Below are positions 1 through 50,228 of a stretch of DNA of 50,260 bases, one piece after another. Positions within the stretch are counted from its first letter, which is position 1. Each line of letters opens with the position of its first letter. The notes beneath the pieces are model-generated. The model saw only the letters and a program-made list of their open reading frames with translations, did not search any database and had not been told where the DNA came from. Location: sequence record PQ159479. One strand, 5' to 3'. A program made the position numbers and the translations under genes. Source of the stretch: Escherichia phage Henu4_2.

Positions 1-474
1 ATGGAAAACATGAGCTTTACCGAAAAACTACGCGAGGCAGCAAAGGCGCTTGCCAGTGGCGAGAAAAGCGAAATCGTGATCCCAACTGGCTACCTAGCTA
101 CTGAATTAGCCGGAAAGAAATCATCTGAGAATCCGGCTTCATACGTGCGCACCACTATGTCACGAGTGCCGGAAGTAAAAATGGTTGGCACTATCAAGAT
201 CAAAAAGACAATGTGCGACGATGACGAAAGTAACCTTTTCGGCATGGAAGTATTCAAGATCACACTCACGCATGAGAAGCGGAAAACGGTTTATAGCAAG
301 GCTGACGTTGAACGGCACAAGCGCCAGGCAGTGAACAAGGCAGCAGAGCGCTTTATGACGCTATCGCCAAACCTGGCAAACTATGCGCCGGAAGAATACG
401 CAACCGTAGCAAAAGTAATGCAAGAGCTTCATGCACTTGTGAAAATCAACTTTGTCAACAATGAGGATGAATAA
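1..474 (+). CDS. hypothetical early protein (gene 1; RBS and promoter lie at the 3' end of the window)
   Basis: 157-aa ORF starting at position 1; AGGAGA 7 nt upstream if the sequence is circularised; no recognisable motif. Confidence 0.5.
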   Translation: MENMSFTEKLREAAKALASGEKSEIVIPTGYLATELAGKKSSENPASYVRTTMSRVPEVKMVGTIKIKKTMCDDDESNLFGMEVFKITLTHEKRKTVYSKADVERHKRQAVNKAAERFMTLSPNLANYAPEEYATVAKVMQELHALVKINFVNNEDE

Positions 475-723
475 ATGGAAAACTTTGATTTAGAAGCATT
501 AATGGCAACAATCGACACGACAAGCGCAACGCAGTTTAACGTTGTGCGCCTTATAAACCTGGATGCAGCAGAAATAACGCTTGACCAGTTCAAAGAAATG
601 TTAAGCCAGGCCAAGAGCATTTATGAATCAGAAGAAGATCACGAAATCACCGTTATCTGCGTACAGCCGCGAGAGGATGAAAACACATTCCTTTACGCCT
701 TTGTGAATGAGGGTAATGCATAA
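475..723 (+). CDS. hypothetical protein
   Basis: 82-aa ORF starting 1 nt after the preceding stop; acidic. Confidence 0.45.
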   Translation: MENFDLEALMATIDTTSATQFNVVRLINLDAAEITLDQFKEMLSQAKSIYESEEDHEITVICVQPREDENTFLYAFVNEGNA

Positions 724-956
724 TGCTTTGTAAGATCCGCTTTAATGGTGTAGACCTACTGAAAGAGTCCAGGATGTGTACCACTGCAATTGTTAATCGC
801 CTATATCTAAGAAGTGGCGGCAACATAGTAAAGCTGGAATATCGTTCCGGTCGCATAATCCGCACAGACACCGGAAGATGCATAGAAACTAATGAATTGC
901 TATGGCACAACGCAAAAGGCCGTTTGCTTTTCAAAACTTTTGAGGATATCCGCTGA
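723..956 (+). CDS. hypothetical protein
   Basis: 77-aa ORF, start overlaps preceding stop. Confidence 0.35.
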   Translation: MLCKIRFNGVDLLKESRMCTTAIVNRLYLRSGGNIVKLEYRSGRIIRTDTGRCIETNELLWHNAKGRLLFKTFEDIR

Positions 957-1063
957 TGAAAACATTCGCATTTATCGCTGCAATGTGGTGCGTCTTAATC
1001 GGATCTCCTTTCGTGGCGCTTATTGTGCTTGTCTTGATATTGTTGGGGGCGTTTGATGAATAA
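956..1063 (+). CDS. small hydrophobic peptide (35 aa, single predicted TM)
   Basis: ATG overlapping upstream stop (TGATG), GAGGAT RBS, hydrophobic core IAAMWCVLIGSPFVALIVLVLILL. Confidence 0.3.
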   Translation: MKTFAFIAAMWCVLIGSPFVALIVLVLILLGAFDE

Positions 1064-1169
1064 GAAACTTTTAGATCATGCTGTTGTGTTCTTTATTGCT
1101 GCTGCTGGATTTTCATTGTTGTCAATTGCTTTTTCAATCCTAGCGTTTGCCGTGTCAATGCTGAAATGA
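1056..1169 (+). CDS. small hydrophobic peptide (37 aa, single predicted TM)
   Basis: GGGGG RBS, hydrophobic core VVFFIAAAGFSLLSIAFSILAFAV. Confidence 0.3.
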   Translation: MNKKLLDHAVVFFIAAAGFSLLSIAFSILAFAVSMLK

Positions 1170-1191
1170 TGATTTGCATTCTGATTGGTAA

Positions 1192-1235
1192 ATAGCACTT
1201 TTTGTTAAAACTGAATCGGGGTAGTTTGGCATAAT
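1192..1235 (+). promoter_or_regulatory. conserved early element copy 1 (motif + stem-loop GGGGTA/TACCCC containing CATAAT)
   Basis: ATAGCACTTTTTGTTAAAA then -10-like CATAAT 22 nt after TTGTTA; ATCGAAAC leader; ATG at 1267. Confidence 0.5.
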
Positions 1236-1266
1236 TACCCCATCGAAACACAACGGAGAAAATAAA

Positions 1267-1527
1267 ATGCAATTCGAACTAACCCGCGTAACTGTTGAAA
1301 TTCTGAATGACGGAACCTATGACGGAATGAAACATTTAACATTCCCGATCCGAATTGAGAATTGCCTTGATTATGGCGTTGAAGTCGGGATGGTTGACGT
1401 TCCTCTTGATGCCCTGGTTGCGGCTGGTTATGACAAGGTAAAAGGCCGCATGTGTGAAATTCCTGATTGCATGGATAGTGACACGTTTTTACCGTTCAGC
1501 TATGGCGAATGCCGGATTGTTAAGTAA
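1267..1527 (+). CDS. hypothetical protein
   Basis: 86-aa ORF downstream of early element, RBS GGAGAA. Confidence 0.5.
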   Translation: MQFELTRVTVEILNDGTYDGMKHLTFPIRIENCLDYGVEVGMVDVPLDALVAAGYDKVKGRMCEIPDCMDSDTFLPFSYGECRIVK

Positions 1528-1601
1528 GGAGCAACAAATGAGCAGTTGGCACAATGAGCACGTAATGCAATTCTACCGCCAAAGAATAAAGAAAATGCTC
1601 A

Positions 1602-1645
1602 ATAGCACTAATTGCTAAAACTAAATCGTGGGTATTTGATAAAGT
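1602..1645 (+). promoter_or_regulatory. conserved early element copy 2 (stem GGGTA/TACCC, TAAAGT)
   Basis: ATAGCACTAATTGCTAAAA; TAAAGT 22 nt after TTGCTA, preceded by TG. Confidence 0.5.
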
Positions 1646-1681
1646 ACCCACCGTTGAGTTAAGCAAAATGAGAAACAAACC

Positions 1682-2245
1682 ATGTTAAACATCAATAAAA
1701 TCAACTTCCCGATCACATTCAATGCCGGAATGGCTGGAAAGATAACATTTGCAAACGATCAGGATGGTGGCGTTTGGGAGAACGGAGAGAAAAGTGACTT
1801 CAAACTAAGCTACTTTGTAAAACAGCATAACCACCACAACATTCACAACAAAGTTGGTGCGCGATATCACTACGAAATGGCTGAGCCACGGAGAGAGCAA
1901 GACGACCAGGTTGACGCGCTGCAATATCTTCTTTCACGCGGCTGTGAGCTTTTCATTGGCGATGTGAAAATCAACAACGAGCTTATTGATGATACTGTAA
2001 AAGCTAATCGTGATATGTTCTGCAACATTGAGTGCATGCCAGTTGGCGCTACCATCCTGGCTATCAAGCGCAGTGCAGAAGGTTGGGACGATGTTACATT
2101 CACACCGCGCCGAATTGAGATTCACGATGATATGATCACATTGCTTTCCGGCTATGCTGGCGGCTATAGCAAAGATGGAAACAATTACGCACTTGAAATT
2201 AACATTAAGCGCGGCACGAAAGTAAAATACAGCACGAATTGCTAA
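1682..2245 (+). CDS. hypothetical protein
   Basis: 187-aa ORF; its stop codon lies inside the next motif copy. Confidence 0.55.
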   Translation: MLNINKINFPITFNAGMAGKITFANDQDGGVWENGEKSDFKLSYFVKQHNHHNIHNKVGARYHYEMAEPRREQDDQVDALQYLLSRGCELFIGDVKINNELIDDTVKANRDMFCNIECMPVGATILAIKRSAEGWDDVTFTPRRIEIHDDMITLLSGYAGGYSKDGNNYALEINIKRGTKVKYSTNC

Positions 2246-2272
2246 AATAGAATCTTGGGGTTGCGGTATAGT
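2229..2272 (+). promoter_or_regulatory. conserved early element copy 3 (stem GGGGTT/AACCCC, TATAGT)
   Basis: ACAGCACGAATTGCTAAAA; TATAGT 22 nt after TTGCTA. Confidence 0.5.
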
Positions 2273-2304
2273 AACCCCACGCCAAACGAAAGAAGGAAAT
2301 CAAA

Positions 2305-2589
2305 ATGAAATTAGCACGTAACGCTGTTTATGCAATCACAACTGAATTTAATAACGCAAATAACTTTGTTCACATCAATAAAAACGGGAAAATTAATCCG
2401 TTCTTTCTTGAAAAACACGGCTTTGATGTTCACGGAGAATTGCGCAATCATCCAGAGGGTTTACACGAGCATTGGAACGGAGCAATTAATTCATTCAAGT
2501 GCGTAATGGTTCAGAGTCACGTGACAAAGCCAAGCGAAGTAGATTTTAAGAAGTGCCGCAAGTTTGCTCGAAATTATAACCGCAAGTAA
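2305..2589 (+). CDS. hypothetical protein
   Basis: 94-aa ORF with RBS AGAAGGAAA. Confidence 0.5.
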   Translation: MKLARNAVYAITTEFNNANNFVHINKNGKINPFFLEKHGFDVHGELRNHPEGLHEHWNGAINSFKCVMVQSHVTKPSEVDFKKCRKFARNYNRK

Positions 2590-2632
2590 TAGCACAAAAT
2601 GTTAAGCGGCCATGTGTCCTGATGGGTATAAT
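2588..2632 (+). promoter_or_regulatory. degenerate early element copy 4 (GGTA-TAAT-TACC palindrome around TATAAT)
   Basis: TAATAGCACAAAATGTTAAGC then TATAAT at 2627-2632; ATCAACCAAC leader. Confidence 0.4.
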
Positions 2633-2664
2633 TACCGCATCAACCAACCAAAGGAGAAGTAAAA

Positions 2665-2772
2665 ATGTCTAAAGAGTCTATCAAGCAGTTTCTGAAATAC
2701 GGTTCTATGATTGTGCTCGCTACCGTTGTTCTGGCTGGCATCGCTTATAGCATTATTGAGTTTGCGGGGTAA
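2665..2772 (+). CDS. small membrane peptide (35 aa)
   Basis: strong RBS AAGGAGAAG; hydrophobic core MIVLATVVLAGIAYSII. Confidence 0.4.
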   Translation: MSKESIKQFLKYGSMIVLATVVLAGIAYSIIEFAG

Positions 2773-3336
2773 TTGATGTTTACGGTCAACTTATGGGGAA
2801 GGGATTACGTTAATCCCTATGTTGTGACAAAACAGCGTTTCGTTATTTTCGACCTAGACGGCACATTGTCAAATGGTGAGCACCGCTTGCACCTGTTGCC
2901 AACTGTTGACTTGCACCTTACTGAAAGCTGGAGTGAGTTTAACCGCGCGGCTAAGGATGATTTACCATTCAGCAATAACATTGCCGTGTGCAACGCCATG
3001 TTTGATGCCGGATACCTGGTTATCATCCTAACAGGCCGTAGCGATGAAGTAGAGGCTGAAACACGCGCCTGGCTAGCTGAAAACGGCGTTTCTTTCGATT
3101 GGCTGATTATGCGCCGCGCCAGCGATAACCGGAAAGATACCGTAATCAAAGAGGAAGTTTTACGGACTATAGGACTTGATCGCATTGTCGCATGTTGGGA
3201 TGACTCACCAAACGTTATTGCACACCTGCGCGGCCTGGGATTGACGGTTTACCAGGTCATTGACTACGGAGAGCAGTTACACGATCACTTAAGGTCTCAC
3301 GGAGTGGAGAAGTTGAGCGATGATTCAAACGCATGA
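2773..3336 (+). CDS. HAD-superfamily phosphatase (PNK-3'-phosphatase-like)
   Basis: HAD motif I FVIFDLDGTL near N-terminus; 187 aa. Confidence 0.65.
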   Translation: MMFTVNLWGRDYVNPYVVTKQRFVIFDLDGTLSNGEHRLHLLPTVDLHLTESWSEFNRAAKDDLPFSNNIAVCNAMFDAGYLVIILTGRSDEVEAETRAWLAENGVSFDWLIMRRASDNRKDTVIKEEVLRTIGLDRIVACWDDSPNVIAHLRGLGLTVYQVIDYGEQLHDHLRSHGVEKLSDDSNA

Positions 3337-3420
3337 TCCAATTGCGCTTGCCTGGGGAGTTGGTGCTTTTATCGTGGCGGTTGTGATTTGCTTATGGGAT
3401 ATCAACAGGAGGGATAGATA

Positions 3421-3609
3421 ATGCATTCAAAGAATATTCAGGATCGGCATGGTGACAATATTCTTGTTTACAGTCGCGGTGAATCAGTCTGGATTGATTG
3501 TAAATATGACGACGACACCAAATTGCAGTTTCGCGCCATATTAGACAAGAAAAGCGCAAGAGAATTAGCGGATCATATAAAGCGGCTTGCTGATGAATTG
3601 CCTTATTAA
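3421..3609 (+). CDS. hypothetical protein
   Basis: 62-aa ORF, RBS CAGGAGGGA; stop immediately before motif copy 5. Confidence 0.45.
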   Translation: MHSKNIQDRHGDNILVYSRGESVWIDCKYDDDTKLQFRAILDKKSARELADHIKRLADELPY

Positions 3610-3653
3610 ATAGCACTTTTTGCTAAAACTTGCTAAGGCACATTTGATAAAGT
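3609..3653 (+). promoter_or_regulatory. conserved early element copy 5 (8-bp stem AAGGCACA/TGTGCCTT, TAAAGT)
   Basis: AATAGCACTTTTTGCTAAAA; TGaTAAAGT 22 nt after TTGCTA. Confidence 0.5.
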
Positions 3654-3687
3654 GTGCCTTGTCGAGACAAGCAAAGGAGAATGACAA

Positions 3688-3999
3688 ATGAAAGTATTTA
3701 CAACTGTTGGATTTAGAACTAACCATTATTACATTGTTAACGATGACGGCGTTATTTTTGCCTCACAAAAACCGTTCTTTGATGGTGATAATTTTTTCAA
3801 GAGCGTATTTCAATCGCCTGGTGTTTTGGTAAGTATGTGCAATCGTGGCTCGTTAGCGCCGTACAATAAAGAGGCGAAGGATTTTGTTGATAAAGTTAAC
3901 GGTGTAAAAACAAAGCGCGAAATGAATAAACACGTTATCGCCGTTATCGTTTGTGTGGCAATTGCCGTTGGTTCTATTTTCATGGGGGTTTGGTCATGA
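3688..3999 (+). CDS. hypothetical protein with C-terminal TM segment
   Basis: 103-aa ORF, RBS AAAGGAGAA; C-terminal hydrophobic VIAVIVCVAIAVGSIFMGVW. Confidence 0.45.
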   Translation: MKVFTTVGFRTNHYYIVNDDGVIFASQKPFFDGDNFFKSVFQSPGVLVSMCNRGSLAPYNKEAKDFVDKVNGVKTKREMNKHVIAVIVCVAIAVGSIFMGVWS

Positions 4000-4178
4000 C
4001 ACTTGATAATAAATTAGAAACACAAAAGACGATCAACTATCTGCGAGCGCTTGCTGATGCTCTTGAATCTGGCGAGGCCGCATTAAATGATGTTGGTATT
4101 GAGTCAAGAAATCACGGATGGACTCAGATCGAAGAAACATTAACCGTTCAATATTTTAAGGTGAATAAAGATGGCTAA
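3996..4178 (+). CDS. hypothetical protein
   Basis: 60-aa ORF starting ATGA-overlapped with preceding stop. Confidence 0.4.
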   Translation: MTLDNKLETQKTINYLRALADALESGEAALNDVGIESRNHGWTQIEETLTVQYFKVNKDG

Positions 4179-4746
4179 AATTATCATCCTTAATGCGCCT
4201 CCTGGTGCTGGTAAAGATACGATAGGCAAGATGATTTCTTTCTATTCGCCAGGCGAGCAATGCCGCATTATTAGCTTTAAAGAGCCGATGTTTGACATTG
4301 CATTAGCTATCCTGGGTAAAGAGAACTATCAGCGCTTCATGTTGGCTTATGATGACAGAGAGCAGAAAGAAAGGCCGCAAACATTCCTGATGGGTATGTC
4401 ACCGCGTGAGTTCATGATATGGATTAGCGAGGATGTAATCAAACCTAAATTCGGCAAGGATTATTTCGGCGTAAGGTTTAACCAGAAAGTAAAAGAGTGT
4501 GATGCTCCTGTTGTTTGCACTGATGGAGGTTTCCCAGATGAAATTATCGCGCTAATCAATGCTGGTAATGAAGTGAAGCTATGCCGCTTGCATCGCGACG
4601 GGTTCACGTTTGCAGGTGATAGCCGCAACTACATTCGAATCAATCCATACTACCAGAAAAACGGATATAGTGAACACGATTACTTATTAACCAATGAAAA
4701 GCCGATGATTACAGTTAGCGAAATCATTCGCGATCACCTTAAATAG
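4171..4746 (+). CDS. P-loop nucleotide kinase (dNMP-kinase-like)
   Basis: Walker A NAPPGAGKDT at N-terminus, resembling phage dNMP kinases; 191 aa. Confidence 0.6.
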   Translation: MAKIIILNAPPGAGKDTIGKMISFYSPGEQCRIISFKEPMFDIALAILGKENYQRFMLAYDDREQKERPQTFLMGMSPREFMIWISEDVIKPKFGKDYFGVRFNQKVKECDAPVVCTDGGFPDEIIALINAGNEVKLCRLHRDGFTFAGDSRNYIRINPYYQKNGYSEHDYLLTNEKPMITVSEIIRDHLK

Positions 4747-4786
4747 CACGAATTGCTAAAACTTGCGCAAGGCCATTTGATATAGT
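4743..4786 (+). promoter_or_regulatory. conserved early element copy 6 (stem AAGGCCA/TGGCCTT, TATAGT)
   Basis: ATAGCACGAATTGCTAAAA; TGaTATAGT 22 nt after TTGCTA. Confidence 0.5.
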
Positions 4787-4824
4787 GGCCTTATTCAAGA
4801 GAAGCTACCAATCAGGAGAAAGTC

Positions 4825-5055
4825 ATGAAATACCAGATTTACAGCGCCATCGATGCAATCGACGATGCACAAAGCCTTTTCATGTTCGACGAAAATGACA
4901 ACTACACGGTTGTGTGTGATTGCTACACTGATGCAGATTATCTTGAGCAGTTAGCTCGCAACGGTGAAGGTTGTAATTGGAGCGACAACAAAAATGAAAC
5001 TCCACGTCGCCAAGATATGATCAATCCGGTTCTGGTTAAAGAGTTTGAGGTGTGA
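4825..5055 (+). CDS. hypothetical protein
   Basis: 76-aa ORF, RBS CAGGAGAAAG. Confidence 0.45.
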   Translation: MKYQIYSAIDAIDDAQSLFMFDENDNYTVVCDCYTDADYLEQLARNGEGCNWSDNKNETPRRQDMINPVLVKEFEV

Positions 5056-5057
5056 TA

Positions 5058-5252
5058 ATGAAAATCAAATGCACAATGTCAAATACGGACGCGCTTACAG
5101 TCGGGAAAGTTTACGATGTAACGCCAGCGGAGGAAGGGTTTAGCCCAACCGTTAAGCACGACAGTAAAGGGTTTTATTATCTCAATGGCAAAGATAATCT
5201 TTCTATCCTGGTGGTTAAGGCTGTAATTGCAGAATTTGAGGCGGTGGAATGA
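5058..5252 (+). CDS. hypothetical protein
   Basis: 64-aa ORF (ATG at 5058, RBS GAGGTG). Confidence 0.45.
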   Translation: MKIKCTMSNTDALTVGKVYDVTPAEEGFSPTVKHDSKGFYYLNGKDNLSILVVKAVIAEFEAVE

Positions 5253-5431
5253 TTAGGCACTTAATTATTTTTGCGATGGTGCTTTTAGGTACAATGCTTA
5301 TTGATAACGACACATGGGCTACTGCAATTGGAGGTTGTTTGCTTTTTGTTGCTGGCGGCATGTTTGGTGAGAATGAGGCAAAAAAGGAAAATAAACTTTC
5401 CGATCACTTACGCAAGGAGACTAAACGATGA
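5249..5431 (+). CDS. small membrane protein
   Basis: 60 aa with two hydrophobic stretches; ATGA overlap with upstream gene. Confidence 0.4.
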   Translation: MIRHLIIFAMVLLGTMLIDNDTWATAIGGCLLFVAGGMFGENEAKKENKLSDHLRKETKR

Positions 5432-5673
5432 ACAGAAAAATGCTTGTTCGCGCCTTTGCTAAAATTTCTAAAAGGTGGGGAGACTCTAACAAATCGCCTT
5501 ACACATTTAGCCGTTACGGTTATAAAAACGCTCGCGCCTGGGGTCGCTGCATTGCGGATAACTACAACGCCGAAATGCTGGAAGATTTCGCAAAGTGGAT
5601 TGATACGCCTTTGAAGGATTGGTGTCAATTTGACTATGACTATTTCGCAGAAGAAGAAATTTCTTGTTGGTAA
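5428..5673 (+). CDS. hypothetical protein
   Basis: 81-aa ORF, RBS AAGGAGA. Confidence 0.45.
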   Translation: MNRKMLVRAFAKISKRWGDSNKSPYTFSRYGYKNARAWGRCIADNYNAEMLEDFAKWIDTPLKDWCQFDYDYFAEEEISCW

Positions 5674-5684
5674 GGAGAGTAAAC

Positions 5685-6182
5685 ATGATCGCTAAAAATG
5701 ACCTTTGCAACCTGTTAACGGCTGGTAATGATTATCAGGTTTTGAATAGCACAAAAGACCGTTATTTTATTGAGTGTGACAATGGGGATCGCATGTGGCT
5801 TAAAAAAGGCTTTTTCGAAAGTGAGCATCTATGCAATGCAAAGCGAATCGCAGATGAAGCAAGCGCATTAGCAGAGCGTGAACGAATTCGCGATATAGTA
5901 GCGGAGCAGGTTAGAAATTCATGTTTGCCTGGTGGCGATATCTTCAAATCAATGCGCGGTGAAATGACGGTTGGAATTCAAGATCGCGTAATTGAAAAAT
6001 CAGTTGATCCTGTAATTGAGAATGCGCGATTCAATGCGTTGATTAACTCAGAGACTAACGAATACATTAAAGTGTTAGAGCAACTGCGTGAAGTGCTGCG
6101 AGTGCCGGAAGGTGAAAATATTGTCACTCATGCAAAAGTTGTAAGAGCGTTGGCTGATGCGCTGATTGGTCTGCAAAAATAG
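5685..6182 (+). CDS. hypothetical protein
   Basis: 165-aa ORF from ATG 5685 with RBS AAGGAGAG; stop TAG inside motif copy 7. Confidence 0.5.
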   Translation: MIAKNDLCNLLTAGNDYQVLNSTKDRYFIECDNGDRMWLKKGFFESEHLCNAKRIADEASALAERERIRDIVAEQVRNSCLPGGDIFKSMRGEMTVGIQDRVIEKSVDPVIENARFNALINSETNEYIKVLEQLREVLRVPEGENIVTHAKVVRALADALIGLQK

Positions 6183-6222
6183 CACTTTTTGTTAAAACTT
6201 CCGCGAGGGCATTTGTTAAAGT
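6179..6222 (+). promoter_or_regulatory. conserved early element copy 7 (TGtTAAAGT)
   Basis: ATAGCACTTTTTGTTAAAA; TAAAGT 22 nt after TTGTTA; weak GAGG/CCTC stem. Confidence 0.45.
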
Positions 6223-6256
6223 ATCCTCATTGAAGCGAAACACGGAGATTTAGGAA

Positions 6257-6466
6257 ATGGCTGTATACACTGGCAAAATGTTTGAAAGCGAAAACCCGAT
6301 TTACGGCGGCACTTATGAGCTAATCATTGATGAAGATCGTGTAATCCTAGCTGACGACGATAACCAGGAATATTACGAAGTAGAAGCCGATAAATGGGAT
6401 AACGACGTTATGTTTCTTGTTGATAATAGCCGAATCAAGTTTTATGCAGTGGAGGAAGAAGAATGA
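6257..6466 (+). CDS. hypothetical acidic protein
   Basis: 69-aa ORF, RBS GGAGATTTAGGAA. Confidence 0.45.
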   Translation: MAVYTGKMFESENPIYGGTYELIIDEDRVILADDDNQEYYEVEADKWDNDVMFLVDNSRIKFYAVEEEE

Positions 6467-6714
6467 TCACAATTAACCTATCAGAAGAACAAGCGAAATC
6501 ATTGTTGCGCGGCATGGGCTGGCGAATGGGTAGCGGTAGCGAGGCGGTTGTAAACATCAAAGAGGAAGTAGCAAAAGAGCTTTTTGCACAGCTTGAGCAT
6601 AAACTTATGCCAGCCTCAACAAGCGCGGCGGAGTTGGCAGTGTGGCGGCATGAAAACGGCCTTAATGAAATGGATGTTGAGAAGTGGAAGCGTAAAAACG
6701 AGGTGATGCAATGA
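6463..6714 (+). CDS. hypothetical protein
   Basis: 83-aa ORF, ATGA overlap. Confidence 0.45.
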   Translation: MITINLSEEQAKSLLRGMGWRMGSGSEAVVNIKEEVAKELFAQLEHKLMPASTSAAELAVWRHENGLNEMDVEKWKRKNEVMQ

Positions 6715-14600: not shown

Positions 14601-14649
14601 TGTTCTAACACAAAAAACACTTGAACGTTTAACAAAAAATGCTATATTA

Positions 14650-24495: not shown

Positions 24496-24543
24496 TACAT
24501 GTACAATGGCAGCACGTTTAAATAGCACAAAAGGTTAAAAGCT

Positions 24544-28780: not shown

Positions 28781-29836
28781 ATGAGCGATTTTAAAGTTTA
28801 CACCTTTGACCAGTTAACCAATGATGAATATCACGATCCTAAAGGTTGGGCGGCTGAATACGTTAGCGGTTCAAGCCTGGCGGAAATCTTTGCAACTTGT
28901 CCGGCTGCATGGAAATACAGACCACGCGAGGAAAGCAAAGCGCTTGTTTTCGGTACGCAGTCACACACCAACTTTCAAAGCAGTGAGTTGTTCGCAAAAG
29001 AGTACCGCCGAGCGCCAGCGCCGGAAGATTACGAAAACTTGATCACAAGCCAAACAGCATTAGCAAGCAAGTTAAAATCTTTTGGCCTGACTGGTACAAG
29101 CGGGAAAACTTATCCAGACCTGATAAAAATGATGGTTGATTGTGGTGAGGATCTTAATGTTCAGTGGCTGATTGAAATGATCGCAGAGAGCCAAGCGCGA
29201 GCGGATAACGTTGAATTGGTTCCGGCTAAAGATTACGACGCTTGCGTTACCATGCGCCGTGTGCTGGAAAGCATACCGGAACACAACGCTTGCATGAATA
29301 GCCCAACAGCACAACGAGAGCTATCAATTTTCGGTATTATCAAAGGCGTGAAAGTCAAAGTAAGGCTTGATCATGTTGATATTTGCAAAGATGTGCTTGC
29401 AACTGTGATTTCCGGTTATGATGGTGAAGGTAATCCGGTATATGAAACAACGCGATTTGAGGAAGCGATTGTGATCACGGATTATAAAACAACGTCAAGC
29501 GCTAACCCGTCAGAGTTTGCAAGGCTGGCATTCAATCACGGATACTACTTGAAAATGGCATTGCAGCACGATCTATTTAAATGCGCATATCCAGATGAAA
29601 AAAGGCCAATTGTAATGCGTTTGCTTGCTCAAGAGAAAAAAGAGCCTTATTTACCAATCGCATATCGCATGACGGATGAACATTTAAAGATCGGCGGCAT
29701 ACAATACATGAGCGTGATAAACCAGTTTGCAGAATGCCAGGCAAATGACGTTTGGCCTTCATATGCAAACGGAGAGCCGGAAATTGACCTTCAAACGCCT
29801 GATTGGGTTCGTCGTCAATACAAAGGTTTTTTATAA
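28781..29836 (+). CDS. PD-(D/E)XK recombination exonuclease
   Basis: motifs RLDHVD and VITDYKT; ATG 28781 chosen because the longer ORF would overlap the promoter. Confidence 0.7.
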   Translation: MSDFKVYTFDQLTNDEYHDPKGWAAEYVSGSSLAEIFATCPAAWKYRPREESKALVFGTQSHTNFQSSELFAKEYRRAPAPEDYENLITSQTALASKLKSFGLTGTSGKTYPDLIKMMVDCGEDLNVQWLIEMIAESQARADNVELVPAKDYDACVTMRRVLESIPEHNACMNSPTAQRELSIFGIIKGVKVKVRLDHVDICKDVLATVISGYDGEGNPVYETTRFEEAIVITDYKTTSSANPSEFARLAFNHGYYLKMALQHDLFKCAYPDEKRPIVMRLLAQEKKEPYLPIAYRMTDEHLKIGGIQYMSVINQFAECQANDVWPSYANGEPEIDLQTPDWVRRQYKGFL

Positions 29837-29879
29837 ATAGCACTTTTTGCTAAAAATGCCATTATATGCGTGGTATACT
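29837..29879 (+). promoter_or_regulatory. conserved early element copy 8 (stem GCGTG/CACGC, TATACT)
   Basis: ATAGCACTTTTTGCTAAAA; TGgTATACT; ATCAACCAAC leader. Confidence 0.5.
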
Positions 29880-29913
29880 ACACGCATCAACCAACGAGAG
29901 AGAGGAAATAAAA

Positions 29914-31402: not shown

Positions 31403-31425
31403 AAAGGGGCTTACGCCCCTTTTTC
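31403..31425 (+). terminator. rho-independent terminator after ssb
   Basis: AAAGGGGC-TTAC-GCCCCTTT + TT. Confidence 0.7.
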
Positions 31426-31664: not shown

Positions 31665-31690
31665 TAAAAAAGGGAGGCGTTTCGCCTCCC
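31665..31690 (-). terminator. terminator for the minus-strand tail fibre gene
   Basis: GGGAGGCG-TTT-CGCCTCCC, T-run on the minus strand. Confidence 0.7.
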
Positions 31691-31717
31691 TTTGTATTAT
31701 GGTAGTTCTGGAATTGT

Positions 31718-34074: not shown

Positions 34075-34100
34075 ATAAAAAACCCCGCCTTAGCGGGGTT
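34075..34100 (-). terminator. terminator after primase gene (minus strand)
   Basis: AACCCCGC-CTTA-GCGGGGTT with T-run on the minus strand. Confidence 0.7.
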
Positions 34101-34164
34101 CGTCAACGACAACGAGAAATCAATGAAACAGATTCATCGAAAAGTGTTAGTAGCAGGATGAATA

Positions 34165-35091: not shown

Positions 35092-35149
35092 TTCTCAATC
35101 TCCAAATAAAAAACCTGGCACGATGATAAACCATGCCAGGCCGGAATTT

Positions 35150-35758
35150 TTAGCAATCAGTGCTATCGACGGAAATCACAACGCGTTTCTTCTGATTGGC
35201 TTCCTTTGCTTTGCGCCGTTCTTCTTTCTCCTTGTCGCGTTCAGCCTTGCGCCGCGCTTTCTCCTTCTCGCGTTCTTCTGGAGTCATAGACCGTAACGGA
35301 TCGTAAGGCCGGACAAATCCCCTTGCTTCCGCTTCCTCTTTGGTTACAAATCGCATCAGCTTTCTGTTGCTGCAACGATTCTCTAATGGTTTTCCGTTAT
35401 TATCAAACTTGATATCTGGACGGCAATATGAAGCGCGAAAACCGTTAAAACCTTTGCGGCGGTAATCTTTCTGGATCAGTTCAGCGCCTTTAGTTGAAAT
35501 CATGCCGCGCTCTTTCCATCCCCATACTGTTTTAAGGTTAACGCCAATTTCACGCGCCAGGGCAGCGCAACCGCCGTAAGCGTTGACAACTTCATCAAGA
35601 CGCGCTTTTAATCCGGCTCTTACTTCTTCCTTTAATACAAGATAACCGCTAACAGGTGCGCGACGTTTGCGATCTTTACCACGTCTTACGCCGTTGTTAC
35701 CATTGATTGTGCGTTTGTCGATTTCGCCAGTTGAGGCGGCAATTTTGATTTCGCTCAT
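35150..35758 (-). CDS. HTH DNA-binding protein with polybasic C-terminal tail (putative regulator)
   Basis: HTH-like CAALAREIGVNLKTVWGWKERG; C-terminal KR/E-rich; start at ATG 35758 with RBS AGGTGA. Confidence 0.55.
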   Translation of the reverse strand: MSEIKIAASTGEIDKRTINGNNGVRRGKDRKRRAPVSGYLVLKEEVRAGLKARLDEVVNAYGGCAALAREIGVNLKTVWGWKERGMISTKGAELIQKDYRRKGFNGFRASYCRPDIKFDNNGKPLENRCSNRKLMRFVTKEEAEARGFVRPYDPLRSMTPEEREKEKARRKAERDKEKEERRKAKEANQKKRVVISVDSTDC

Positions 35759-35768
35759 ATTTTCACCT

Positions 35769-35811
35769 ATAGCACTTTTTGCTAAAAAACTTGATTGAGT
35801 TTGTGTATGAT
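35769..35811 (+). promoter_or_regulatory. conserved early element copy 9 upstream of helicase operon
   Basis: ATAGCACTTTTTGCTAAAA then TATGAT. Confidence 0.5.
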
Positions 35812-35835
35812 ATGCCGCAAATGGCATTTAGTCAA
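35807..35835 (-). promoter_or_regulatory. sigma70 promoter for HTH gene (TTGACT-17-TATCAT), -10 overlapping the plus-strand -10
   Basis: minus-strand TTGACT (35835-35830), 17-nt spacer, TATCAT (35812-35807). Confidence 0.6.
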
Positions 35836-37822: not shown

Positions 37823-38230
37823 ATGGTTACTGACAAAGGCGATTATCTGGAGTATTACAACAAATCAGATCCAGACGATAGGAAGGAGGAAGCGCACCAG
37901 GTTGATTCTTATTCATGGCTAACATATGAGTTTACAATGTGGCTTGTTTGGCACACTAAAAACGAGGGGAAGAAAACCATAGGCACAGCCGTAAAGGATC
38001 AGCAAGCGGGTGTGAAAAAGGGAGTTAGCGACATTCTAATTCTGACTGGTTTTATTGGCTGCAAGTATTCATTTATAGCCATTGAGCTTAAACGCGCCAA
38101 CAAGAAAGGCACGAAAGTAAGCCAGGAGCAAAAGGAATTCTTACGACGCGTTAGGGAATGCGGAGGATTTGCCGCCGTATGCTATGGCGTAGAGCAAGTA
38201 AAATTGGCTATCGCAGACGCTACAAAATAG
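37823..38230 (+). CDS. VRR-NUC domain nuclease
   Basis: GVSDILIL...IAIELKRANKKGTKVSQEQKEF matches the VRR-NUC D..E.K and SxEQ pattern. Confidence 0.75.
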   Translation: MVTDKGDYLEYYNKSDPDDRKEEAHQVDSYSWLTYEFTMWLVWHTKNEGKKTIGTAVKDQQAGVKKGVSDILILTGFIGCKYSFIAIELKRANKKGTKVSQEQKEFLRRVRECGGFAAVCYGVEQVKLAIADATK

Positions 38231-38270
38231 CACTTTTTGTTAAAACAGGCGCAACGGAATGCGCCATAAT
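38226..38270 (+). promoter_or_regulatory. conserved early element copy 10 (stem GGCGC/GCGCC, CATAAT)
   Basis: ATAGCACTTTTTGTTAAAA; CATAAT 22 nt after TTGTTA; AACGAAACGGAG leader. Confidence 0.5.
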
Positions 38271-38301
38271 GCACCCATCAGAACGAAACGGAGAATTAAC
38301 C

Positions 38302-39321: not shown

Positions 39322-39588
39322 ATGGAAAAGATTGAAACTATTGTTGAAAATGGCGTTGAATATCGACGCGTTGAATTAACTGAACGTGGTTTATGGTTGC
39401 TTTATCGCGCTATGGTGTGCGATGCGATAGAAAAGGCGAATGAAACTGAAACAGTAGGATCTGATTTGTGGATGTTCACAGATGTGCTTGATATGAGTTT
39501 TGATGAAACAAAAGAGCTTGTATTGAGCAAGTGGGAAGAAAAGATAAATCAAGATCTAAAAGAATTTTTAGCAGATCCGAATAAATAG
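39322..39588 (+). CDS. hypothetical protein
   Basis: 88-aa ORF, stop inside motif copy 11. Confidence 0.45.
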   Translation: MEKIETIVENGVEYRRVELTERGLWLLYRAMVCDAIEKANETETVGSDLWMFTDVLDMSFDETKELVLSKWEEKINQDLKEFLADPNK

Positions 39589-39628
39589 CACTTTTTGTTA
39601 AAAATGCCCCGCTTATGTGGGGCATAAT
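39584..39628 (+). promoter_or_regulatory. conserved early element copy 11 (stem ATGCCCC/GGGGCAT, CATAAT)
   Basis: ATAGCACTTTTTGTTAAAA; CATAAT; TTCAACGAAACGAAACGAGGA leader. Confidence 0.5.
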
Positions 39629-39660
39629 CATTTCAACGAAACGAAACGAGGATTTGTAAA

Positions 39661-41257: not shown

Positions 41258-41369
41258 TTAAATTATCACATAAAAAGGCTGGCTAAATGCTGGCCTTTTT
41301 TTGTTTTTGTCGTTAACATAATCAGACTGTTTTTTGATATTGACTTTTTAATTTTTAAGGGATCTAGTT

Positions 41370-42092: not shown

Positions 42093-42478
42093 AAAGAAAA
42101 TTACTGGCTATTATGATGTGCATTGCTCTTTCTGGTTGTTCAGCTTCAAGCGTTTTACCTGGTCTGATTGGTAGCAAGCCTGATATAACGGCACAGGCTG
42201 GAGCGGAGAATGTGAAACAGACTGTTGGTGTGACCGCAAAGCAGGATACATCAAGCAAGCAGGAAACAACATTCAAAGAATCGGCAGTTGGTCAGGTTGA
42301 CACGTCAAATAAAAAGCAGGTGAGCACCTCAAGCATTAAGGCCGATAACATCACGGCGGAAAGAATAGAAATTCGCAACAATGACGGTCTTAACGTTCCG
42401 GCAATCGCAATGGGTATATTAATGTTTATTGCTGGTATGCTGGCAGGTTGGACACTAAAACGTAATAAGGCGGCATAA
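42089..42478 (+). CDS. unimolecular spanin (lipoprotein with C-terminal TM)
   Basis: lipobox LSGC at N-terminus plus C-terminal [17 protein letters not shown]; same architecture as T1 gp11. Confidence 0.7.
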
Positions 42479-42493
42479 GCCGCCTTTTCTTTT
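42467..42493 (+). terminator. rho-independent terminator after lysis cassette
   Basis: GGCGGC-ATAA-GCCGCC + TTTTCTTTT. Confidence 0.7.
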
Positions 42494-44603: not shown

Positions 44604-44659
44604 TTGTTGCCGCTAATTATAACGGCAACATTCTACAGCCTTTTAGCAATTCGTGCTAT
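44604..44659 (-). promoter_or_regulatory. conserved early element (minus), stem GTTGCCG/CGGCAAC with TATAAT in loop
   Basis: minus-strand ATAGCACGAATTGCTAAAA then hairpin with TATAAT; RBS AAGGAG. Confidence 0.5.
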
Positions 44660-44904
44660 TTGATCGGCTCAACCCTGGCTAATAACTTTCCGTCTATAAT
44701 GCTATGACATTCAAGAGTTTTAGGATCGAATGCAAGCGAACGATGGAACGTATGACCAATCAGCAAATATGAATGCTTATCCCTGATGCGATAGACCGTT
44801 TCACCTTCCTTTAATGAGGATATCGCACTGAAAACAACCTTGTAACGGTATTTTTGCATGGCCTCAGAACGGTGAGGAATGTAATCTTTTTCCGGTAAAC
44901 TCAT
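44656..44904 (-). CDS. hypothetical protein
   Basis: 82-aa ORF; stop TAG inside the motif. Confidence 0.45.
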   Translation of the reverse strand: MSLPEKDYIPHRSEAMQKYRYKVVFSAISSLKEGETVYRIRDKHSYLLIGHTFHRSLAFDPKTLECHSIIDGKLLARVEPIK

Positions 44905-45263: not shown

Positions 45264-45294
45264 TTGATTTATCTCCTTTTGTTTTCGTTGAAAG

Positions 45295-45339
45295 CATTAT
45301 GCCGGATACGTGATCCGGCGTTTTAACAAAAAGTGCTAT
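45295..45339 (-). promoter_or_regulatory. conserved early element (minus), stem GCCGGAT/ATCCGGC, CATAAT
   Basis: minus-strand AATAGCACTTTTTGTTAAAAC + hairpin + CATAAT + TTCAACGAAAAC leader. Confidence 0.5.
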
Positions 45340-46031
45340 TTCTGATTTGCCAGGCATACAGCAAGCGCAAAGCCGCGCGGAGTGAGTGAGCGGATCAGCT
45401 TTGTTCGCTTAGACTTACCGCCTAGCTTTTGCCAGCCTGGATTGTTGTTCCCTGTTGGCAATACTGCGTTTGTATCCGGCATTACAAAACCGTTACCCGT
45501 CCAAAGGCAAGTTTTTTTGGTGTACGCATCGCGAGCGGGAATGATTTCAGGAAAGTGAGGATGTTTATCATCTTCCGGCAACAGACCGCCAAATGCGCAA
45601 GGATGAAAGATAAAATCAGGTTGCCTCCACATCGACGACAGGACGCTAACAGGATTCTCGATCATGTATGGAACGTTAAACCGATCCGCAATATTGGCAG
45701 CAATCTTTGCCGTTTCAACCGCCTTTTTCTGGAAGTCTGGATCACGTTCACGCTTTGCTGCAAAGTGACGCGATCCGCTAACAGCTAAATCAGTGCATGG
45801 AGGGAATGCAATAATAAAATCTGGAGTGCCAAAGACGCGCATCATTGCGTTATGCTGGAATGATAATCCGATCCACTCATTCAAATAAACGATGTTGGGA
45901 TGAGTCACGCGCACTGATTGGTAATCACCATGATCAGCACCGTCGAAATTAAAGCACAGCACTTTGTGACCACGTTCAGCCCACGGCAACGCAGCATAAC
46001 CAGAACCATCAAATAGTGAGAAAATAAGCAT
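45336..46031 (-). CDS. putative DNA cytosine-5 methyltransferase (short form)
   Basis: motif I-like FSLFDGSGYAA, motif IV-like AFPPCTD, motif VI-like YMIENPV; ATG 46031 with RBS AAAGGA. Confidence 0.55.
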   Translation of the reverse strand: MLIFSLFDGSGYAALPWAERGHKVLCFNFDGADHGDYQSVRVTHPNIVYLNEWIGLSFQHNAMMRVFGTPDFIIAFPPCTDLAVSGSRHFAAKRERDPDFQKKAVETAKIAANIADRFNVPYMIENPVSVLSSMWRQPDFIFHPCAFGGLLPEDDKHPHFPEIIPARDAYTKKTCLWTGNGFVMPDTNAVLPTGNNNPGWQKLGGKSKRTKLIRSLTPRGFALAVCLANQK

Positions 46032-46678: not shown

Positions 46679-46709
46679 TTTTGATTCTCCATTTTGTTTG
46701 TGTGAAAGT

Positions 46710-46757
46710 ATGATACCAATCAGAGCGATATCGTTTTTAGCAATTCGTGCTGTTTAC
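46710..46757 (-). promoter_or_regulatory. conserved early element (minus), TGgTATCAT
   Basis: minus-strand ACAGCACGAATTGCTAAAAA then extended -10 TGGTATCAT. Confidence 0.5.
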
Positions 46758-47609: not shown

Positions 47610-47640
47610 TTTTAAATTCTCCGGTTCGTTTCGATGAATG

Positions 47641-47686
47641 CATTATGCCAAAACAAACCGGATCGCTTTTAACAAAAAGTGCTATT
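47641..47686 (-). promoter_or_regulatory. conserved early element (minus), CATAAT
   Basis: minus-strand AAATAGCACTTTTTGTTAAAAGC ... GGCATAATG ... TTCATCGAAACGAACC leader. Confidence 0.5.
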
Positions 47687-48515: not shown

Positions 48516-48545
48516 CGTTGATTCTCCTTATTGGTTGATGTGTGT

Positions 48546-48590
48546 ATTATGCCGGATTGCTCAGGCGATGTTTTAACAAAAAGTGCTATT
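48546..48590 (-). promoter_or_regulatory. conserved early element (minus), CATAAT
   Basis: minus-strand AATAATAGCACTTTTTGTTAAAAC ... GGCATAATAC ... ATCAACCAATAAGGAG. Confidence 0.5.
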
Positions 48591-49015: not shown

Positions 49016-49040
49016 TGCTAAATCCTCATTTCGTTTCGAT

Positions 49041-49093
49041 GGGATAACTATATCAAGTTACCCCGATCCGGTTTTAACAAAAAATGCTATTTA
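49041..49093 (-). promoter_or_regulatory. conserved early element (minus), stem GGGGTAAC/GTTATCCC with TATAGT in loop
   Basis: minus-strand AAATAGCATTTTTTGTTAAAAC + hairpin + ATCGAAACGAAATGAGGA. Confidence 0.5.
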
Positions 49094-49525: not shown

Positions 49526-49556
49526 CGTGAATTCCTCAGTTCGTTTCGATGAAGTA

Positions 49557-49602
49557 ATCATAGCAATTCGTGACTGATTGGTTTTAACAAAAAGTGCTAT
49601 TC
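49557..49602 (-). promoter_or_regulatory. conserved early element (minus) with adjacent half-copy, TATGAT
   Basis: minus-strand GAATAGCACTTTTTGTTAAAACC followed by CACGAATTGCTATGAT and TTCATCGAAACGAAC leader. Confidence 0.5.
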
Positions 49603-49608
49603 ATGCGA

Positions 49609-49638
49609 TAGACCGATTGGTCTAGACCGTTTGGTCTA
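49609..49638. promoter_or_regulatory. two overlapping 16-bp palindromes (operator-like)
   Basis: TAGACCGATTGGTCTA and TAGACCGTTTGGTCTA sharing a central TA. Confidence 0.5.
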
Positions 49639-49670
49639 ATGAACACATCGTTTCTTGTATCGAACGGATT

Positions 49671-49706
49671 CACGATCACGTTATGCGATCACAATATGAT
49701 CACGTT
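49671..49706. repeat. cluster of three GATCAC (Dam-site) repeats at 11-13 bp spacing
   Basis: GATC at 49674, 49687, 49698, each in a CGATCAC context. Confidence 0.5.
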
Positions 49707-49720
49707 GATGATTGATGTGT

Positions 49721-49770
49721 GAGTTGATGTGATGTGATTTGATTAGATTTGATTAGATTTGAGTAGCGAG
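49721..49770. repeat. five tandem 10-bp iteron-like repeats
   Basis: GAGTTGATGT / GATGTGATTT / GATTAGATTT / GATTAGATTT / GAGTAGCGAG. Confidence 0.5.
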
Positions 49771-49919
49771 AGAGTGGAAATAATCACACCTTGCCGATCT
49801 CGTGAAAACTTTTCCGCAAAACATCACACCCTGGCTTGCGCGTTGTCTAAAACGTTCCACGATGTTCACGGGTTTACCTTCCGTAAAAAAGCGAAACAGA
49901 AAACAACAATGAATCACCC

Positions 49920-50080
49920 TATAACATACTAAAAAGTAAGATAATTTTATTTATATATCTATAAAAGTTTCTAGTTGTTTAGCTTGTTCTCTATATATAG
50001 GGATACCCCACGTATATTTTCTAACTTTATATGGTTATGTGTATGCTCCAGGGTATATGTATATATATGGGTATGTTCCG
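49920..50080. repeat. AT-rich low-complexity region (control region B, related to 28430-28620)
   Basis: shares TATATATCTAT, GTTCTCTAT and TATATATGGTATG blocks with region A. Confidence 0.5.
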
Positions 50081-50199
50081 AAATCGGCGTAGTTTTTGAA
50101 AACGCGCCGCAAAACATTGAAATCAAAGGCGATAAACACAAAAAGGCGTCTAAACAGAACAATATTCTGATTGTAGACATAAGAACAACAGAAAAAACT

Positions 50200-50228
50200 T
50201 TGACTATGCGCCAGCACATCAGCATAAT
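50200..50228 (+). promoter_or_regulatory. near-consensus sigma70 promoter (TTGACT-17-CATAAT) for gene 1
   Basis: TTGACT 50200-50205, CATAAT 50223-50228; ATCAAAACCAATCAGGAGAAAACCCT leader runs to the window end; ATG at position 1 on circularisation. Confidence 0.65.

Follow-up and report, generated by a model that had tools for sequence, protein, structure and literature searches.

Composite promoter/stem-loop cassettes of a T1-like phage, in which a hairpin may form the 3' boundary of the upstream message

Intergenic direct repeats of 21 nucleotides (nt), with the consensus aaATAGCACnnnTTGnTAAAA, were published in 2024 for phage TLS, where a start codon follows about 76 nt downstream (Phage 2024, PMC11447400). 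The function of these repeats was left as a question, and stoperators, enhancer sites or UP elements were suggested (PMC11447400). Another described system, found in the T4-like myoviruses RB49/phi1, PST/T4 and nt-1/KVP40, consists of promoter-early and promoter-middle stem-loop cassettes (PeSLs and PmSLs; Arbiol et al. 2010, PMC2839356; Comeau et al. 2014, PMC4122927). One PeSL stem-loop reduced the expression of a downstream lacZ as strongly as rrnB T1 (PMC2839356), and the PmSLs are stem-loop variants on Mot-box promoters that lack a -35 box (PMC2839356; PMC4122927). Here we analyze a stretch of 50,260 nt from Escherichia phage Henu4_2 (sequence record PQ159479; hereafter the window, meaning this whole stretch), and we suggest that its copies of the 21-nt element belong to composite promoter/stem-loop cassettes of a T1-like phage, in which a hairpin in read-through RNA serves as the 3' boundary of the upstream message. 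We give this reading a probability of roughly 0.55. The 21-nt repeat (TLS, 2024), the annotation of some T1 hairpins as terminators, and the PeSLs of T4-like phages were already known. For T1-like phages, the literature that we searched yielded no account of a fixed -10 and start site, an embedded stop codon or covarying hairpins. Only the TLS paper was relevant, and it gives the 21-mers alone, with no mention of a -10 fixed at +18 or a CA start motif, of stop codons inside the element or of hairpins (PMC11447400).

The first 6 kb of the window are up to 97% identical to T1-like siphoviruses (including Salmonella phages KKP 3830, YSP2 and GJL01, and coliphage U136B), and the classified relatives of the phage belong to Drexlerviridae, Tempevirinae, Tlsvirus. 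The window corresponds to approximately one genome length. Both of its arms carry small genes in early blocks, and the structural genes form a late block between them. A pattern search of the window for the 21-mer AATAGCAC-N4-TGYTAAAAC, with up to three mismatches allowed, returned 19 matches where 0.30 were expected. As in TLS, to which the window phage is closely related, these copies follow the published consensus, are intergenic and run along the direction of transcription; the orientation relative to genes is the same and the copy number is about the same. Start codons lie approximately 69-83 nt after the start of the element. A single pattern scan of IMG/VR provided 120 loci from relatives (L001-L120) on roughly 35 T1-like contigs, which together with the window gave 462 unique cassettes in an ungapped alignment.

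The stop codon of the upstream gene falls inside the element, or within 2 nt of it, in the window cassettes. In the relatives, 159 of 297 upstream genes end in a TAG at offset 2 of the element, and the others in a TAA at offset 15, -2 or -1. The element thereby carries stops in all three frames: besides the TAG at offset 2 there is (T)AA at -2 or -1 and, in TGCTAAAA, TAA at offset 15. Nearly every cassette is preceded by a co-directional gene (297 have one, 8 do not), and the element behaves as a universal linker for plug-in genes. Degenerate copies without a -10 at +18 are present in the late structural region at 14626-14646 (-) and 24521-24541 (+). Their TLS counterparts are DR7 and DR8 (PMC11447400), and they may be decayed cassettes or chance survivors.

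Downstream of the element, the cassette has the appearance of a promoter. All 19 elements in the window are followed by a -10-like hexamer in which position 2 is A and position 6 is T (CATAAT, TATAAT, TATAGT, TAAAGT, TATCAT, TATGAT or TATACT), at a spacing of exactly 18 nt, or 17 nt in two copies. Such a hexamer occurs exactly 18 nt after the element in 377 of the 462 unique cassettes, and within these 377 the conservation of G-14, C-1 and A+1 is 0.86, 0.76 and 0.89, respectively. The layout comprises the 21-nt element (-51 to -31), an 18-nt free spacer, an extended -10 (TGn plus TAtaaT, -15 to -7), a 6-nt free discriminator and a CA start. The start is followed by an A-rich leader, ATCGAAACGAAAC, and then by GGAG and ATG, which come 18-32 nt past +1. 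The cassette occupies the entire intergenic gap. Given A-11 and T-7 at fixed spacing, G-14 in 86% of cases, and C-1/A+1 after it, the hexamer is very probably a working -10, and from the same pattern we infer the start site (+1). The -10 would be read in DNA by the host sigma70 RNA polymerase, with the 21-nt element occupying the place of the -35 box. At 16-18 bp from the -10 there is no -35 box, the element's TTGYTA being 22 bp away. A standard -35/-10 scan therefore overlooks every cassette, which would also be why only three sigma70 promoters were found in the TLS genome by its authors (PMC11447400).

Other assignments of these motifs were considered and rejected. TTGYTA as a -35 box fails on its distance of 22 bp, and with the hairpin extruded far too little spacer would be left. 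If TGYTAAAAC were the extended -10, the start would be at about -24 and the hairpin at the 5' terminus of the transcript, but TAAAAC lacks the near-invariant T at -7. This assignment is also ruled out by the downstream hexamer, which holds A-11/T-7 at fixed spacing whatever the class of hairpin (described below), and by the CA start motif that comes after that hexamer.

The free positions of the cassette carry pairing that is specific to each copy. Because the spacer is G-rich at -24 to -20 and the discriminator is C-rich, some complementarity is obtained for free, and we therefore used a null in which each alignment column is permuted among cassettes, so that composition is kept and copy-specific links are destroyed. 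The comparison was made on a diverged set from the relatives, comprising 101 cassettes with differences at more than 8 of the 25 free positions. In this set, 34% have perfect stems of at least 6 bp versus 4% in the permuted null, with perfect stems of at least 7 bp in 17% versus 0.8% and a mean minimum free energy (MFE) of -8.8 versus -4.5 kcal/mol. The excess of stems over chance is copy-specific and is not a matter of composition.

A register scan against chimeras located the strongest excess at registers centred on -13/-12 and on -21/-20, with a weaker excess in several neighbouring registers. In class a, the centre is between -13 and -12, positions -24 to -16 pair with -9 to -1, and the loop is TGnTAT. 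In class b, the centre is near -21/-20, and both arms are in the spacer, abutting the -10. Overall, a copy-specific hairpin is built from free positions in half to three quarters of cassettes. The two classes leave a mark on the promoter. C at -12 (CATAAT) closes the class-b stem, and it accordingly occurs in 47% of class b versus 20% of the remaining cassettes (p = 4e-6). Class a is associated with A-18/T-17 and with the TG at -15/-14, since these bases either pair with T-7/A-8 or occupy the loop. The hairpin has thus shaped the promoter sequence itself. As a separate observation, the commonest -10 in the relatives (L001-L120) is TATAGT, with 112 of 425, and TATAAT accounts for 24. In class-a stems, the G at -8 forms a G.U pair with T-17, and this pairing does not explain the preference for G.

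Pairing is also preserved through change. Cassettes upstream of the same gene in different phages have, for example, AAGGCCA/TGGCCTT (window 4769-4792) in one and AAGGGCA/TGCCCTT in another. On a minimum spanning tree of cassettes that differ at no more than 5 of 36 nt (170 edges), there were 15 cases in which the two paired bases had both changed, 12 of them with the pair kept; random placement gives 5.6 +/- 2.3 such double changes, and none of 1000 randomisations reached 15. Tests tied to fixed columns were weaker. In the diverged set, the fixed-register pair count for class a was 48.3% versus 45.6%, with 8 of 500 shuffles as high, and the count for class b was null. The top pairs by mutual information between fixed columns were not on the expected anti-diagonal. 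We attribute these results to the use of several registers by the hairpins and, for mutual information, to a dominant subfamily signal; the register-free column-permutation test is the appropriate one.

For the window, positions -30 to +6 of each copy were folded, and the MFE was compared with 200 dinucleotide shuffles and expressed as z. Values between -2.7 and -5.5 were obtained for 11 of the 19 copies, five were marginal (-1.2 to -1.9), and three have no structure (35789, 47630 on the minus strand and 49545 on the minus strand). The focal hairpin has an MFE of -13.3 kcal/mol and z = -3.5, and one of 200 shuffles was as stable. The original prediction for this stretch had listed nine inverted repeats, with arms that differ between copies yet remain complementary. 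All nine are present in the sequence. Five had been placed exactly (1218-1241, 2257-2278, 4769-4792, 29868-29885 and 38248-38265), and the other four were off by 1-2 nt, the corrected positions being 1630-1649, 3635-3660, 39604-39625 and 44606-44629. Four further stems can be added, at 35142-35112 (-), 45319-45301 (-), 49068-49038 (-) and 2620-2642. The hexamer had been placed in the loop or 3' arm, and this describes class a, in which the arms flank the -10. It does not describe class b (38248, 39605 and 45319 on the minus strand), in which the arms are in the spacer and only the first one or two bases of the hexamer are paired.

It had further been proposed that selection acts on structure and not on a shared protein site, and that this should be visible as stems more stable than shuffled controls and as complementary arms at the homologous loci of relatives. 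The proposal is supported on both counts. The stems are far more stable than shuffled and column-permuted controls; copy by copy, 11 of 19 reach z <= -2.7, and the previously listed 38248 stem is marginal (z = -1.9). In relatives, pairing is kept by compensatory changes, as where GGGGTT/AACCCC at window 2257-2278 is replaced by GGGCTT/AAGCCC in the U136B orthologue.

Several features indicate the form in which the hairpin acts. Non-Watson-Crick pairs in class-a stems are G.T in 92 cases versus A.C in 21, and 31 versus 12 at pairs free of promoter constraint. Of the 101 diverged cassettes, 72 fold better as the sense strand versus 28 as the antisense strand (p = 6e-8, with an unbiased null), and the bias is present in each class (33 versus 12 in class a, 14 versus 2 in class b). 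Class-b loops are free to evolve, and of the 50 tetraloops among them, 22 are GNRA where 1.6 are expected and 4 are UNCG where 0.8 are expected, enrichments of approximately 14-fold and 5-fold. GNRA and UNCG loops are RNA-specific stabilisers and are common in terminator hairpins. The preference for G.U over A.C, the greater stability of the sense strand and the tetraloops favour a hairpin that works as sense-strand RNA; a two-stranded cruciform or a protein-binding palindrome predicts none of the three. Across the whole window, no Rfam covariance model matched at the gathering score, and in 1-6500 there was no match at E <= 1 either.

Since the arms are both located before the predicted +1, with +5 reached only by an optional outer helix (TCGAT/ATCGA), the hairpin would be present only in RNA that arrives from upstream, and absent from the cassette's own messenger RNA (mRNA). 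We infer the existence of this read-through RNA, and a boundary function for the hairpin within it. In this scenario, the hairpin would fold in RNA reading through from the upstream cassette, and would attenuate or terminate read-through, block 3' exonucleases at the end of the upstream message, or both. It begins 16-23 nt past the upstream stop codon, just clear of a terminating ribosome. Neighbouring cassettes of one to five genes would in this way be insulated from each other. The hairpin encloses or abuts the -10 because the spacer and the discriminator are the only unconstrained bases between the stop codon and the start site.

Annotated T1 hairpins and the tails of class b are in line with such a boundary, as is the near absence of other terminator-like sites between cassettes. 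In the T1 record NC_005833, four class-b cassette hairpins are annotated as rho-independent terminators. One of them reads TACCCGC-GAAA-GCGGGTA and then TTATTGTTTT, in which TATTAT is the -10. Among the relatives, 28% of class b have at least five T within 8 nt after the stem, and these T-rich tails arise because the -10 and the discriminator supply the T.

Class a is less terminator-like than class b, and this is one of several points that weigh against a boundary function. Class a is the majority and has no U-tract, with at least 4-5 T after the stem in only 1-3%, so that these stems are not canonical intrinsic terminators and termination there would need another pause signal. No enrichment of T after class-b stems is seen when hairpin-less cassettes are taken as the reference at the corresponding positions. 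A quarter to half of the cassettes have no hairpin, including some with a co-directional upstream gene (47686 and 48590, both on the minus strand), and the hairpin is therefore dispensable. The presence of a hairpin cannot usefully be compared with the presence of an upstream gene, since the division of 297 cassettes with a gene and 8 without leaves that comparison powerless. G.T is the least damaging mismatch in a DNA hairpin as well, and the wobble bias taken alone is compatible with a hairpin on the non-template DNA strand. Lastly, a literature search for transcript mapping in T1-like phages found no mapped start sites or 3' ends.

A more speculative version of the boundary, which we consider a long shot, is that the class-a hairpin is a U-tract-independent terminator built around a -10 with two uses, as a promoter for free holoenzyme and as a sigma-dependent pause for the elongation complex. 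An elongation complex that retains or rebinds sigma70 would be held by the non-template TGnTATAAT a few bases past +1. The stem ending at -1 would then be 5-8 nt from the RNA 3' end, as in intrinsic termination, and the pause would replace the U-tract. Upstream termination and the next initiation could thus take place at one site, possibly with recycling of the polymerase. If true, this would account for the dominant register centred on the -10 and for the stem that ends at the start site.

Other explanations accept the same hairpins and assign them a different purpose. They could insulate or process RNA, either by hiding promoter-derived sequence, so that the downstream leader and ribosome-binding site would be alike for either mRNA start, or by directing endonuclease cleavage in the adjacent leader. 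The RNA-level evidence (G.U bias, sense bias and tetraloops) applies equally here, most stems lack a U-tract, and the base of the stem at -1, or at +5 with the outer helix TCGAT/ATCGA, coincides exactly with the start of the conserved leader. We nevertheless find this unlikely, given that a typical RNase III site is longer than these stems of 9-14 bp, that in class b the stem stops about 12 nt short of +1 and the -10 and discriminator stay single-stranded, which is a poorer match to insulation, and that the T1 annotation and the PeSL experiment favour termination. A structure at the DNA level, in which a hairpin or cruciform in supercoiled DNA or on the single-stranded non-template strand would show or hide the -10 and tune initiation in an N4-like manner, is suggested by arms that lie wholly in promoter DNA upstream of +1 and by class-a hairpins centred at -13/-12, the upstream edge of the -10; the G.T wobble bias could fit it for the non-template strand only. 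The strong sense/antisense asymmetry is unexpected for a two-stranded cruciform, however, and the enriched GNRA and UNCG loops are specific to RNA. Furthermore, loops of 6-12 nt are unfavourable for extrusion, the -10 is outside class-b hairpins, and the folded form pairs T-7, which would hinder rather than help sigma region 2. T1-like phages also encode no RNA polymerase, the TLS paper having found no gene for one (PMC11447400), and a DNA-level role appears improbable. Palindromic sites for a dimeric DNA-binding protein are already disfavoured and scarcely credible. Inverted repeats do occur in promoters here and the phage encodes at least one protein resembling helix-turn-helix (HTH) regulators, but the arm sequences are wholly different between copies, register and loop length vary, and G.T is tolerated where A.C is not, a distinction without meaning for duplex DNA.

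The cassettes are also places where genomes are rearranged, and this raises the question of whether the hairpins are only passive leftovers of recombination, functionless remnants of travelling terminators in linkers used for gene shuffling. Similarity breakpoints fall in cassettes about twice as often as expected from length (12.8-14% versus 6.4%), with peaks at the element start and the leader, and one downstream gene carries different hairpin classes in different phages. Relative to U136B, the window has an extra cassette and a 187-aa gene (~1632-2231), an indel of 600 bp bounded by cassettes. U136B has a single hybrid cassette at this junction (locus L121, 2426-2500), the left flank of which corresponds to the window 1601 cassette and the right part to the window 2228 cassette. 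Similarly, gene 2305-2589 is replaced in U136B by an unrelated gene between conserved cassettes. These differences resemble the PeSL pattern, and would reflect gene gain and loss by recombination between flanking cassettes. Shuffling accounts for the movement of hairpins but not for preserved pairing. Remnants would decay, yet compensatory changes keep pairing among close relatives, which is evidence of purifying selection on it, and the promoter positions -12, -17 and -18 have been reshaped by the hairpins. We therefore consider it very unlikely that the hairpins are leftovers, and retain a boundary at the 3' end of the upstream message as our preferred reading.

Table 1. Focal features and cassettes in the window. 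Positions are those of the whole stretch; z is from the fold test of positions -30 to +6.
Feature	Position	Strand	Element	Hairpin	-10	z	Remarks
Focal 21-nt element	1191..1211	+					promoter positions -51 to -31; same repeat as the published TLS 'DR' consensus aaATAGCACnnnTTGnTAAAA
Focal hairpin, class a	1218..1241	+		GGGGTAGTT/AATTACCCC			9 pairs including one G.U; loop TGGCAT holds the start of the -10
Focal -10	1230..1235	+			CATAAT		after TGg (extended -10); fixed 18 nt past the element
Focal predicted start and leader	1242..1266	+					A at 1242 (after C), predicted from sequence; leader ATCGAAACACAACGGAGAAAATAAA; ATG at 1267
Cassette	1601..1655	+	1601-1621	1624-1655, core GTGGGTA/TACCCAC	TAAAGT 1640-1645	-4.5	upstream open reading frame (ORF) stops at TAA within the element
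Cassette	2228..2279	+	2228-2248	2256-2279, TGGGGTT/AACCCCA	TATAGT 2267-2272	-3.3	
Cassette	2588..2642	+	2588-2608	2620-2642, bulged	TATAAT 2627-2632	-1.8	marginal
Cassette	3609..3665	+	3609-3629	3630-3665, core AAGGCACA/TGTGCCTT	TAAAGT 3648-3653	-5.0	0/200 shuffles as stable
Cassette	4742..4793	+	4742-4762	4769-4792, AAGGCCA/TGGCCTT	TATAGT 4781-4786	-3.2	
Cassette	6178..6229	+	6178-6198	6205-6228, weakened, GAGGG.A/T.CCTC	TAAAGT 6217-6222	-1.2	a relative has fully paired GAGGGCA/TGTCCTC, -14.2 kcal/mol
Cassette	29836..29887	+	29836-29856	29866-29887, ATGCGTG/CACGCAT	TATACT 29874-29879	-2.7	
Cassette	35112..35167	-	35167-35147	35142-35112, 13 pairs, then TTTTTT	TATCAT 35128-35123	-5.5	
Cassette without significant hairpin	35768..35822	+	35768-35788		TATGAT 35806-35811	-0.1	first of rightward replication block
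Class-b cassette	38226..38277	+	38226-38246	38248-38265, GGCGCA/TGCGCC	CATAAT 38265-38270	-1.9	C-12 is the last paired base
Class-b cassette	39584..39635	+	39584-39604	39605-39624, TGCCCCGC/GTGGGGCA	CATAAT 39623-39628	-4.3	
Cassette	44605..44660	-	44660-44640	44630-44605, TGTTGCCG/CGGCAACA	TATAAT 44621-44616	-4.95	-10 in loop
Class-b cassette	45289..45340	-	45340-45320	45319-45301, GCCGGAT/ATCCGGC	CATAAT 45301-45296	-3.4	
Weak-hairpin cassette	46703..46754	-	46754-46734		TATCAT 46715-46710	-1.5	
Cassette without hairpin	47635..47686	-	47686-47666		CATAAT 47647-47642	+1.5	
Weak-hairpin cassette	48539..48590	-	48590-48570		CATAAT 48551-48546	-1.8	
Cassette	49038..49091	-	49091-49071	49068-49038, GGGGTAACT/AGTTATCCC, one G.U, plus outer helix	TATAGT 49052-49047	-4.05	
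Cassette without hairpin	49550..49601	-	49601-49581		TATGAT 49562-49557	+1.0	first of leftward early block; no co-directional gene upstream

The window contains regulatory features of other kinds. A canonical sigma70 promoter, TTGACT-17-CATAAT, is located at 50200-50228 (+), before the ORFs at 1-1169, and has neither a 21-nt element nor a clear hairpin. Its TLS counterpart is P01 (PMC11447400), and it is probably an immediate-early promoter. In that case, a product of the operon at 1-1169 could be what the element-type promoters depend on. Between the divergent early blocks is a noncoding stretch of approximately 600 bp (49600-50200) that contains two tandem 14-mers with the palindrome GGTCTAGACC (49609-49636), CGATCAC repeats (49673-49698), GATTT/GATGT tandem repeats (49720-49764) and the AT-rich inverted repeats TATATATA (49950-50075). 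This stretch could be an operator, origin or pac region.

On the minus strand, a canonical promoter TTGACT-17-TATCAT at 35807-35835 overlaps the leader of the 35768 (+) cassette and faces an HTH-like ORF (35150-35760 within the region 35150-35827, both on the minus strand). Pfam gives this ORF a weak YdaS/Cro-like match that stays below the curated cut-off (E = 2e-5), and the T1 gene at the corresponding position is annotated as a 'transcriptional regulator'. The ORF ends at a stop codon within the 35167 (-) element, and after it comes the one cassette hairpin that has a T-run. Of the cassette hairpins in the window, this one alone passes the terminator scan criteria, and its T1 counterpart is annotated as a terminator. 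The HTH-like protein is a candidate reader of the 21-nt element or of the palindromes in 49600-50200. The gene at 5664-6182 (+) carries the label 'putative GntR-family transcriptional regulator' in relatives. Its only Pfam hit is a sub-threshold DUF6501, with neither GntR nor any other HTH family matched, and the GntR annotation looks unsupported.

Ordinary terminators consisting of a hairpin plus a T-run are present at 31403-31422, 42467-42486, 31669-31693 (-), 34080-34101 (-) and 41272-41300 (+), two of them bidirectional. The canonical-terminator scan covered 29-49 kb of the window, where these sites lie within and at the ends of gene blocks. The phage thus uses both kinds in this region, with the U-tract-less hairpins inside cassettes.

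From the perspective of genome annotation, the cassettes suggest a testable answer to the question left by the TLS paper, namely that the 21-nt repeats are the upstream half of approximately 20 promoters per genome. Standard -35/-10 scans detect almost no promoters in the Drexlerviridae genomes that serve phage therapy, of which there are hundreds. Recognizing the cassettes would improve the annotation of promoters and terminators there, and would supply compact insulated expression cassettes. The promoter/stem-loop architecture would also have arisen independently in unrelated small siphoviruses, tied to the gain, loss and replacement of small early genes, and it resembles a general means by which lytic phages accommodate plug-in gene cassettes.

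Among known systems, the PeSLs are alike in having a sigma70-type -10 and a variable stem-loop, often of a G-run and a C-run, that lies between the upstream box and the -10 or overlaps the -10. In both, a Shine-Dalgarno sequence and start codon are at the 3' end, small genes of no known function are nearby, and gene gain, loss and replacement are bounded by cassettes. Unlike the PeSLs, the window cassettes belong to Drexlerviridae siphoviruses and are unrelated in sequence. They have no -35 at 16-18 bp, but instead a conserved 21-nt element at -51 to -31 that includes the upstream stop codon, and they favour one register, which pairs the 3' half of the -10. Terminator activity and the formation of mini-circles have been shown for PeSLs. 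The likeness is one of architecture and not of descent.

The cassette hairpins share with intrinsic terminators a GC-rich RNA stem, GNRA or UUCG loops and a position soon after a stop codon. They differ in that most of them, and essentially all of class a, have no U-tract and are followed by AUCGAAAC. Among cassette hairpins, a canonical terminator is found only at 35142-35112 (-) in the window and in a minority of class b in relatives, and class a continues with ATCGAAAC. The promoters of the N4 virion RNA polymerase have 5-7 bp stems, 3-nt loops and conserved sequence, and are read by the phage polymerase on template-strand DNA. Like the cassettes, they place a short hairpin just upstream of the start in a repeated phage promoter. 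In contrast, the cassettes have loops of 4-12 nt, variable arms, a sense-strand RNA signature and no phage polymerase gene, and are not promoters of the N4 type. Repetitive extragenic palindromic (REP) elements, for example that of malE-malF, are alike in being U-tract-less stem-loops between co-transcribed genes that act on RNA 3' ends. REP elements, however, are conserved in sequence and are not nested in promoters, whereas the cassettes conserve pairing only.

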